From positions 13,868-77,867 of the forward strand of contig JARIGK010000003.1 in NCBI GenBank assembly GCA_029288895.1: a stretch of DNA of 64,000 bases, in the 5' to 3' direction. The translations under genes were made by a program, and so were the position numbers. The notes under the pieces are model-generated. The model was given only the letters and a program-made list of their open reading frames with translations, was not told where the DNA came from and made no database searches. The DNA is from Candidatus Adlerbacteria bacterium (GTDB lineage: Bacteria; Patescibacteriota; Minisyncoccia; Phycocordibacterales; SBAW01). Shown here in pieces: positions 7,770 through 10,700 of the stretch; positions within the stretch are counted from its first letter, which is position 1; the number at the start of each line of letters is the position of its first letter.

Positions 7770-10700
7770 AAAGGAACATCGATCGATTAGTACTTCTCAG
7801 CTCAACAGATTGCTCTGCGTACACTTAAAGCCTATCAACGTGATCATCTCTCACGGATCTTAATGAATACTCATCTTAGAGTCGGCTTCGCGCTTAGATG
7901 CTTTCAGCGCTTATCCAATCCCGACATAGCTACCCTGCGTTGCTCTTGGCAGAACAGCAGGTAGACCAGTGGTCAGTTCACTCCGGTCCTCTCGTACTAG
8001 GAGCAAATCTCTTCAATATTCGACGCCTGCAGTAGATAGGAGACCAACCTGTCTCACGCATGTTCCCACACATTACTGTGTGCATTGGACTATAACTTCC
8101 TCTTTTTACAGAGTGCTAATGATTAGTCTCTACGGGCGCATTACTGCTTCCCTCGGTATTGTCCTTGCAGTGTTAGTGCAGTCGGATTCTACCGATATCA
8201 ATTAGCTTCTTCCTAACTTTTACATTAGGACCGCCGTGATTGGTTGTTCTATCTTTCTATATTTTTTACAAACTAAACGAAACGTTTTGATAACAGTTAT
8301 TTCAAGGTTTATGTTGATTTCAAGTCTCGACGGTTCAGACGGTCTAAACTCCTACTTCGAATTCCTCAGTAAGAATCTAAACGGTCTGAACCCAGCTCGC
8401 GTATCACTTTAATTGGCGAACAGCCAAACCCTTGGGAGCTTCTTCACCCCCGGGATGTGATGAGCCGACATCGAGGTGCCGAACTCCGCCGTCGCTATGG
8501 ACGCTTAGGCGGAACTAGCCTGTTATCCCCAGAGTAGCTTTTATCAGATAATCTTCCACCGCGTCTAATACGGATGGTCGGTTCACTATGTCCTGCTTTC
8601 GCACCTGCTTGGCATTCACGCCTCGCAGTCAAGCACCCTTATGCCATTGCGCTATCGGCACGGTTTCCATTCGCGCCTAGGGTACCTTGATGAACTCCTC
8701 CGTTACTTTTTAGGAGGATAGCGCCCCACTAAAACTGCCCACCAGATACTGTCTCGACATAGTTTTGCTATGCCGGTTAGCGCGTACAACTAGAAAGAGT
8801 GGTATTTCACTGTCGAGTCCACTAGAGCCAAAACCCTAATTTCAACCTCTCCCACCTATGCTACGCAGTCGTGTCGTACACGCAATATCAAGCTGCAGTA
8901 AAGCTTCTGGGGTCTTTTCGTCTATCTGCAGGTAACCGGCATCTTCACCGGTACTGTATTTTCACCGAGCTGTGCTCCGAGACAGTTCCCCAGTCGTTAC
9001 ACTATTCGTGCGCGTCTGAACTTACCAGACAAGGAATTTCGCTACCTTAGGACGATTATAGTTATCGCCGACATTCACCAGGGCTTATACAAGTCACCAT
9101 ATCAGATTGCTCCAATACAACGCCCGTATTTGACCTTCTGGCATTGGTCAAGTGTCACCCCCTATACATCCTCTTACGAGTTCGCAGGGAGCTGTGTTTT
9201 TGGTAAACAGTCGCCAGGGATACTTTCGCTGCGGCCCCCAGTATTGCTACGGGGGCAGGCCTTATTCCGAAGGTACGGCCGATTTTTTGCCGAGTTCCTT
9301 GGAGCACACTCACTCGTTCGTCTTACTCTACTCGAGCTGCACACCTGTGTCGGTTTGCGGTACGGTCGTACATATACTTAAGTTTAGAAGTTTTTCTTGG
9401 AAAGCTCTTCACTGTCATCTCGTTGGCCGAAGCCTCAGATGCCCGACATGTCCCGCTAGTTACATTAAAGTAGTATTCCGGATTTGCCTGGAATACCTAG
9501 CTCGTACACATCGACGTCAATCCAATAAGACGCGACAGTTTATTTCTTCCGTCCCTCCATCACATATATGCCGGTTAGGGAATATTAACCCTATGTCCAT
9601 CGGGTGCGGCTTTCGCCATACCCTTAGGCCCGACTAACCCTTGGCTGATCACCATCGCCAAGGAAACCTTGTGCTTTCGACGTGCGGGGATCTCACCCGC
9701 ATTGCGGTTACTTGTGCCTGCATTCTCACTTCGCAACGCTCCACCATGGGTCGCCCCTTTGGCTTCATCGCAGATGCGAATGCTCTCTTACCGCTCACAC
9801 GTTCCGAAGAACATGTAAGCCCTCAGTTTCGGTACTACGTTTTAGCCCCGATTATCTTTGGCGCAGAATCTCTCGATGAGTGAGCTGTTACGCTTTCTTT
9901 CAAGGATGGCTGCTTCTAAGCCAACCTCCTCATTGTCAATGAAATTCCACCTCCTTGCGATGCACTTAACGTAGATTTTGGGACCTTAACTGGAGATCTA
10001 GGACTCTTCTCCTTTTGTACGGTGGAGCTTAGCCCCCACGTACTAACTGCCGTATAGCAATAATGGTATTCGGAGTTTGATAGGAACCACGAGATTGCTC
10101 CCTGTTGGTTCCTTCCAGTGCTCTACCCCCACTATTCAATAAATACGACGCCAGCCCAAAAGCTGTTTCAGAGAGAACCAGCTATTACAAGGTTCGATTA
10201 GCTTTTCACTCCAACCCACAAGTCATCCGAGAGTTTTGAACGGCTCAACGGTTCGGCCCTCCAGTGCGATTTCTCGCACCTTCAGCCTGCTCATGGGTAG
10301 CTCACCTTGCTTCGGGTCTTATGCATGCTACAAACGCGCTATTCACACTCGGTTTCCCTTCGCCTCCATGGTCATCCCACTTAGGCATACGCAGCATACA
10401 TAAACTCGCAGGCTCATTCTTCAATAGGCACGCCGTCGTGGTACAAGACCACTTCGACTCCTTGTAGACATATGGTTTCAGATCTATTTCACTCCCCTCG
10501 CCGGGGTTCTTTTCACCTTTCCCTCACGGTACTAGTTCACTATCGGTCTTAAAAAGTATGTAGCCTTACCGGTTAGTTCCGGCACATTCGCTCAAGCCAT
10601 TCGTGTCTTGAGTTACTCAAGGACAATTAAGAAGTCGTTTCGATTTCGCCTACGGGACGTTCGCCCTCTAGGGTGCTGCTTCCCAGCAGCTTCGGCTATC

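Follow-up and report, generated by a model that had tools for sequence, protein, structure and literature searches.

A 64,000-nucleotide (nt) stretch of a Candidatus Adlerbacteria genome (contig JARIGK010000003.1), referred to here as the window, carries on its minus strand a 23S ribosomal RNA (rRNA) gene at 7768–11070, followed by a 5S rRNA gene at 7525–7638; together they span 7525–11070. In an Rfam scan of the window, the 23S gene was recognized as a full-length bacterial large subunit (LSU) rRNA with a score of 2359 bits, and it was 3303 nt long compared with the 2925 positions of the Rfam LSU model. The 3' part of the gene was collinear with the model in an Infernal alignment except for one block, in which CAGACCGUU and GACAGGUUGGUC were separated by 326 nt in the window, whereas the corresponding cAGaaCGUC and GACAGuuCGGUC were separated by 4 positions in the model. 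The approximately 322 additional nt were located at the tip of helix 93 (H93), the conserved helix that leaves the central loop of the peptidyl-transferase center (PTC). The analysis indicated that this insert is very probably a group I intron without an open reading frame (ORF), positioned after U2593 (E. coli numbering) in H93 of a 23S rRNA of the candidate phyla radiation (CPR, or Patescibacteria), and that it would leave by the standard guanosine pathway. The intron is unremarkable within its family, a large and already catalogued group of CPR introns at site 2593.

Read from the RNA strand, the 5' junction lies between 8381 and 8380 and the 3' junction between 8059 and 8058. The last base of the 5' exon is U, the last base of the insert is G, and the 3' exon opens with CGUGAGACAG, the first base of which is 8058. 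From the E. coli 23S sequence around U2585, A2602, and psi2604/2605, we take the insertion point to be between U2593 and C2594, that is, the L2593 site. The joined exons folded into a canonical H93 with a GUGA loop, an A2602 bulge, and C2590 paired with G2604. GACCGU was counted as exon, in keeping with the C2590–G2604 match and with the refolding of H93 upon ligation. A sequence-only reading of this DNA had proposed an insert of about 320 nt at 8067–8384; the insert is real, but its true limits are 8059–8380, and the proposed ends were off by 8 nt at the low coordinate and by 4 nt at the high coordinate because CCGU had been assigned to the insert and GGAACAUG to the exon. The same reading had correctly described the insert as AT-rich, with a GC content of 0.388 versus 0.498 in the exons, and as free of ORFs on the rRNA strand, there being no sense-strand ORF of 60 or more amino acids within 8059–8380. 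Two antisense ORFs in the insert had no Pfam match. Its placement in the PTC ring was right as to the neighborhood of the PTC but not as to the site itself, which is in H93 where this helix branches from the ring. The position in a variable helix that it had offered as a possible refutation was not what the LSU alignment gave: the insert lies in H93, which is a conserved helix and not a variable expansion helix. An additional 322 nt splitting the 5' strand of H93 beside A2602 is unlikely to be tolerated in the PTC, and it is reasonable to suppose that the insert is removed from the mature rRNA. In annotation, the 23S gene should be given as intron-containing with the two junctions above.

Table 1. 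Features of the intron-containing part of the 23S rRNA gene (window coordinates; nt, position within the intron).
Feature	Sequence or description	Coordinates	Strand	Basis
5' exon end	GGGUUCAGACCGU, 13 nt (E. coli 2581–2593)	8381..8393	-	LSU alignment; same junction in at least 106 relatives
5' splice site	U2593	8381	-	Last base of the 5' exon
Intron	UUAGAUUC...GGAACAUG, 322 nt, ORF-less	8059..8380	-	Sequence reading, relatives, covariance model
H1 hairpin	nt 1–37	8344..8380	-	Minimum free energy (MFE) fold
E element	GUCUGAACC, nt 41–49	8332..8340	-	Pairs with exon nt 2582–2590; covariation
Accessory hairpin P2'	CGAGAC ... GUUUCG, nt 52–103, expanded loop	8278..8329	-	CGAGA...UUUCG shared in relatives, judged by eye
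A-rich linker		8240..8277	-	Position after P2'
Internal guide sequence	UCACG-GCGG, nt 142–150	8231..8239	-	P10 predicted by RNAalifold
P2 hairpin	UCCUAAU GUAAAA GUUAGGA	8211..8230	-	Compensatory changes at 7/7 pairs
P3 5' strand	GCUAAUUGAU	8197..8206	-	Partner 8115–8123; six outer pairs covary
P4–P5 domain		8153..8195	-	98–99% of cells paired
P6	Minimal 19-nt hairpin with GUAA loop	8134..8152	-	Covariation alignment; site of the LAGLIDADG gene in relatives
P7 5' strand	G-A(bulge)-GACUA, presumed guanosine-binding G-C pair	8124..8130	-	Pairs with 8087–8092 (UAGUCC)
P3 3' strand	AUCAUUAGC	8115..8123	-	Immediately after P7
P8	CUCU GUAAAA AGAG	8100..8113	-	Compensatory changes at 4/4 pairs
J8/7 and P7 3' strand	GAAGUUA and UAGUCC	8087..8099	-	Rfam core alignment and covariation alignment
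P9	CACACA GUAA UGUGUG (GNRA loop)	8067..8082	-	Compensatory changes at 6/6 pairs; 98.6% of cells paired
3' tail	GGAACAUG, terminal G (omegaG) at 8059	8059..8066	-	Relatives; leave-one-out match ends at 8059
3' exon start	CGUGAGACAGGUUGGUCUC (E. coli 2594 onward)	8040..8058	-	LSU alignment; ligated-exon fold

A complete group I core was found in the 3'-most 182 nt of the insert (Table 1). The P3, P7, and P9 elements, which the sequence-only reading had recommended searching for by hand, were all present, including the P3/P7 pseudoknot, and so were P4–P6 and P8. In the P4–P5 domain, P4 was composed of UCGGUA and UACCGA, J4/5 of GAA, P5 of UCC and GGA, and J5/4 of CAA. All 52 proposed pairs were canonical in the window intron, and 1 of the 82 conserved columns deviated. 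There was no P7.1/P7.2 extension between P7 and the 3' strand of P3 in the window, since GAGACUA of P7 runs directly into AUCAUUAGC. The Rfam group I model (Intron_gpI, RF00028), a search that had likewise been recommended, gave no match at E ≤ 10 when the rRNA flanks were included (451 or 3901 nt scanned), but the 191-nt core alone gave a weak match of 20.2 bits (E = 0.0025) with the same helix assignment. The gathering threshold of RF00028 is 50 bits, a curation cut-off that does not define a ribozyme; two relatives at the same site exceeded it, with 66.9 and 64.6 bits, and others scored 33–44 bits. When whole rRNA genes are scanned, a pipeline will overlook copies such as the window intron, and this blind spot of Rfam may help to explain why about half of the CPR 23S insertions are unclassified in the literature.

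To collect relatives, species-representative genomes were scanned with the pattern AGACTA-N-ATAGTC-N-GCGTGAGACAG, which yielded at least 119 loci; all counts of relatives given here are drawn from the matches listed. The loci were titled as metagenome-assembled genomes of the Patescibacteria group (CPR) or as unclassified bacteria, with two exceptions. An intron of 213–742 nt was present at the identical junction, ...ACCGU followed by an intron ending in G and then CGUGAGACAGGUUGG, in 106 of the 119 loci, so that the comparison with related genomes proposed in the sequence-only reading produced at least 106 relatives with a homologous intron. The terminal G before CGUGAGACAG was found in all 106, as demanded by the search pattern. 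Among the matches listed, the 23S gene of the window was closest to Adlerbacteria and Nomurabacteria loci, with 84–91% identity. The two exceptions were contigs titled Bdellovibrionales (L058) and Gammaproteobacteria (L006). The former combines a CPR-type exon (ACCGU ... GGUUGGUUUCC) with an intron of the family, a combination that points to mis-binning or mislabelling of the contig; in the latter, the 3' pattern match was present and the 5' exon was not found on the contig. Many related 23S genes, such as those of L007, L064, L054, L135, L133, L212, L194, and others, also had separate group I matches at other positions, indicating that these genes carry multiple introns each.

Forty-nine intron cores were aligned with MAFFT (alignment A1). 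From this alignment, RNAalifold independently predicted P10, P2, P4, P5, P6, P7, P8, and P9. In the full structure including the P3/P7 pseudoknot, 90.7% of the cells were paired, compared with 34–39% when the partners were slid, and both sides had changed in 35 of the 52 pairs; a pair in P3, for example, was GC in 22 cores, AU in 19, and UA in 3. None of 500 shuffles reached the observed covariation values. These data support, at the level of sequence comparison, every variable helix of the core. The bases of P7 and the terminal G were set by the search pattern, and their invariance is for this reason uninformative. A covariance model built from the other 48 sequences, with the window left out, matched the window at 8059–8241 with 151.4 bits (E = 1.6e-29). 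The match spanned the full model, ended at 8059, and was the only one in the 64 kb. The boundaries, the core, the covariation, the score of the family model, and the Rfam scores of the relatives bear out the proposal of a group I intron at L2593 made from the sequence alone. In this family, a compact group I ribozyme is also available in more than 100 natural versions.

The internal guide sequence was identified immediately upstream of P2. Its first part, UCACG (intron nt 142–146), pairs with CGUGA of the 3' exon as P10, and its second part, GCGG (nt 147–150; 8231–8234), pairs with CCGU of the 5' exon as P1, in which U2593 forms a U.G wobble. The sequence ACGGCGG was conserved across the family, and at the two variable P10 pairs five of seven variant cells still paired, as U.G. 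Exon variation is slight within the CPR set, so the main support for P1 and P10 comes from comparing two exon types; for this purpose, metagenomes were scanned for 23S genes that have the common exon AGAACGU (A2590) and an L2593 intron (taxonomy not given). Where the exon had C2590, the fourth nucleotide of the guide was G in 93 of 98 introns; where it had A2590, this nucleotide was U in 76 of 80. The A2590-exon introns had the same core motifs, and those without ORFs scored 55–82 bits with the CPR core model; their guide reads GCGU and lies at a median distance of 10 nt (8–20 nt) from the splice site. A P1 of six pairs (GACCGU:GCGGUC) was considered and rejected, as columns 12 and 44 of A1 covary (UA 25, CG 17). 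This covariation links the fifth base (column 12) to the 3' end of the P2 hairpin and thus assigns it to P2, leaving a P1 of 4 bp.

In the metagenome set, eight contigs (L129, L186, L195, L200, L201, L217, L220, and L229) had AGAACGU followed by UGCAAAACAGUUCGG, which is apparently a form of H93 with another loop and not an intron. At least 10 metagenome matches that shared GGACTATGATATG... after the pattern looked like a second type of L2593 insertion. This candidate was rejected on the basis of L121 (1483–2598), in which the pattern was a chance match inside a 371-amino-acid protein ORF on a contig without rRNA.

In group I chemistry, a free guanosine attacks the 5' splice site, the terminal G of the intron then replaces it, and the 3' OH of the exon attacks the 3' splice site. 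The window intron would leave the precursor rRNA by this two-step, guanosine-initiated pathway. GCGG would pair with CCGU to give the 4-bp P1 with the U2593.G wobble, and UCACG would pair with CGUGA to give P10. The G-C pair of P7 beside the bulged A would bind first the free G, which would attack after U2593, and next the terminal G at 8059, after which the 3' OH of the exon would attack. Ligation of the exons would restore H93.

The first approximately 140 nt of the intron formed a module inside the P1 loop, in the order H1, an invariant AC (8342–8343), a 1–2-nt spacer, E, the hairpin P2', an A-rich linker, and then the guide. In introns with the CPR-type exon, the size of this module ranged from tens of nt to about 250 nt. 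The sequence-only reading had noted that GUCUGAACC could pair with the exon GGUUCAGAC in a P1-like guide interaction. The pairing itself was confirmed by covariation of E with both of the variable exon positions (the second E candidate of L109 being counted by eye): exon CAG occurred with UCUGAA 56 times, exon CAA with UUUGAA in 24 of 24 cases, and exon UAG with UCUAAA in 6 of 6, and no unpaired cells were found for pairs 6-60 and 8-58. In a pairing-based search, E was complementary to exon nt 2581–2590 over at least 8 contiguous nt in 98 of 106 relatives, some E elements carrying wobble variants such as GAGCC. Of 91 relatives, 89 had the exon–E helix in their MFE fold. H1 and AC extend this helix straight across the 5' splice site, and the closing pair of H1 covaries (UA 24, UG 11, AU 2, GC 2). 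As a catalytic guide, however, GUCUGAACC was rejected in favor of UCACG-GCGG, and it was kept as a real exon-pairing element.

The strongest competitor of this assignment is also a group I intron, in which the catalytic P1 would be the long helix formed by the exon GGUUCAGAC(C)GU with AC-C-GUCUGAACC; the splice site would fall in the middle of the stem, and UCACGGCGG would serve only the second step or some other role. The helix is indeed conserved and covarying; in 84 of 91 relatives it continues flush over the splice site and joins H1, and U2593 faces G in 12 of them. In 77 of the 91, however, U2593 faces A, which leaves no U.G wobble, and no P10 partner adjoins the helix on the 5' side of AC. 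The A2590-exon introns, in which no E element was found in the metagenome scan, use a guide homologous to GCGG, 8–20 nt into the intron, whose base changes from G to U with the exon base. In addition, E and the guide are retained in the minimal relatives L087 and L111, but H1 is missing there, so that their splice site is in a loop. For these four reasons we concluded that the exon–E helix is not the catalytic P1, and we regard the long-helix arrangement as improbable.

E and GCGG bind adjacent stretches of one exon strand, nt 2581–2590 and nt 2590–2593, respectively, and the former stretch holds G2583, U2584, and U2585. If the two helices formed together, they would be a pseudoknot. The AC–GU pairs of the closed stem are incompatible with P1. 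Our preferred reading is that E acts as a second exon-binding anchor that would stack under the short P1. A further possible role of the E helix is to keep the 5' splice site within a closed stem until P1 forms. We propose, tentatively and at somewhat less than even odds, that the module provides a two-part binding site for the 5' exon, or, alternatively or additionally, a switch composed of H1, AC, and E that would keep the splice site closed until the core has folded. The module appears to be undescribed: no description of it or of E was found in the open-access literature searched, although it may be reported elsewhere. If true, such a switch could tie splicing to PTC assembly in bacteria with few ribosome biogenesis factors. 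With its conserved, covarying intron–exon helix upstream of a very short P1, the family could be a model for how rRNA introns manage exon structure around the PTC.

Two further observations were made within the module. The loop of P2' (8278–8329) contains a near-repeat, CUUGAAAUCAAC ... CUUGAAAUAAC, and exceeds the corresponding loop of close relatives (for example, L005 and L104) by about 45 nt; this looks like a local duplication. In addition, AGACCGUC and ACCGUCG (8338–8345 and 8328–8334, respectively) copy the ligated junction ACCGU-CG and are complementary to CGGCGGU of the guide. Most relatives have ACAGUC in place of the junction-like copy. These copies are probably a by-product of the near-palindrome GAC-N-GUC, and they could be a pseudo-substrate or a circularization site.

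Some points count against a splicing group I intron with the guide proposed here. The score of the window intron is below the gathering threshold of RF00028, and the match vanishes once flanking rRNA is included. P1 has only 4 bp, the exons offer little variation within the CPR set, and the conservation of P7 and of the terminal G was imposed by the search pattern. The alternative stem at the splice site, with U2593 paired to A in most relatives, is mutually exclusive with P1 at nt 2592–2593. Finally, the excision and activity of the window intron are deduced from its sequence. A decayed, non-splicing intron or insertion, either in a dead rRNA copy or kept as an expansion segment, would fit with the low Rfam score and with the lack of a homing endonuclease gene. 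We consider it very improbable, since 81 of 82 conserved core columns were kept with every helix intact, the family model gave 151 bits, the remainder of the 23S gene was full-length at 2359 bits, and the PTC would hardly tolerate 322 nt in the 5' strand of H93 by A2602. An RNase III-type intervening sequence, cut out without religation to leave a fragmented 23S rRNA, has precedents in the 23S genes of bacteria, and PMC11270868 interprets short CPR insertions at other sites in this way. Its probability is negligible here, because the ends of the insert do not pair, no end-to-end stem appeared in the folds, the H93 site is not among the 23S intervening-sequence sites (23IS2 and 23IS4) named in that article, and the insert has a terminal G and a guide sequence as well as a full group I core.

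As for the rest of the rRNA genes, no 16S rRNA was detected by Rfam in the 64-kb window, in which two tRNAs were found, and the rRNA genes appear to be unlinked. The 23S gene has two further short insertions in domain I, of approximately 32 and 20 nt, at about 10715–10800 on the minus strand (model positions ~282 and 312), which look like helix extensions.

In relatives of 670–740 nt, an ORF starts within P4'/P6 and occupies L6. This ORF belongs to the Pfam family LAGLIDADG_1, and the encoded endonuclease matched I-CreI, I-MsoI, and I-CvuI over the full length, with an E value of about 1e-20 for I-CreI. No homing endonuclease ORF was found in the window intron at the cut-off of 60 amino acids given above. 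In the window copy, P6 is a minimal hairpin, indicating that the endonuclease gene was lost or never present.

CPR rRNA insertions, including those at position 2593, were catalogued by Tsurumaki et al. (2024, J Bacteriol; PMC11270868), and the following statements refer to the portion of that article available. Position 2593 is listed there among the LAGLIDADG_1-rich sites, and 45% of the CPR 23S insertions are classed as group I, by Rfam only. Brown et al. (2015) are cited in it for the first report of CPR 23S insertions at 2593 and for the removal of CPR rRNA insertions from transcripts. The window intron has the same host clade, gene, and position as this set (PMC11270868), whereas it differs in being ORF-less and below the Rfam threshold. 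In the same portion, neither secondary structures of the introns nor a P1-loop module with an E element were found.

Cyanobacterial L2593 introns are about 745 nt long and have an endonuclease gene, a P7.1/P7.2 region of about 65 nt, and a short P2 (Haugen et al. 2007; PMC1995217). The P7 of the window intron, in contrast, runs straight into the 3' strand of P3, and by the P7.1/P7.2 test the window intron is not an L2593 intron of the IA3 type; the extension was observed in the metagenomic introns L133, L158, L132, and L235. The I-CreI-type L2593 introns have the identical insertion site and share with the CPR family the core motifs AUAUCGGUG, UACCGAGGG, GUAGAGACU, and AAGAUAUAGUCC and a GNRA-capped P9. 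The CPR family, which lacks P7.1/P7.2, is homologous to these introns, of which we take Cr.LSU of the Chlamydomonas chloroplast to be an example. The P1-loop module sets introns with the CPR-type exon apart from the remaining L2593 introns sampled: the guide of the A2590-exon introns is separated from the splice site by a median of 10 nt, whereas that of the window intron follows the H1–E–P2' module.

Two more distant systems resemble this arrangement. In the Tetrahymena intron, a 5'-exon pairing termed P(-1) reportedly competes with P1 (Woodson and Cech, 1991). By analogy, the splice-site stretch of the CPR introns has a second, conserved partner besides the guide, although P(-1) forms within the exon and the partner provided by E lies inside the intron. 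Group II introns bind their 5' exon in two parts through EBS1 and EBS2. The CPR introns are loosely analogous in that neighboring stretches of their 5' exon are bound by two separate parts of the intron, whereas the EBS/IBS pairings belong to another class of ribozyme.

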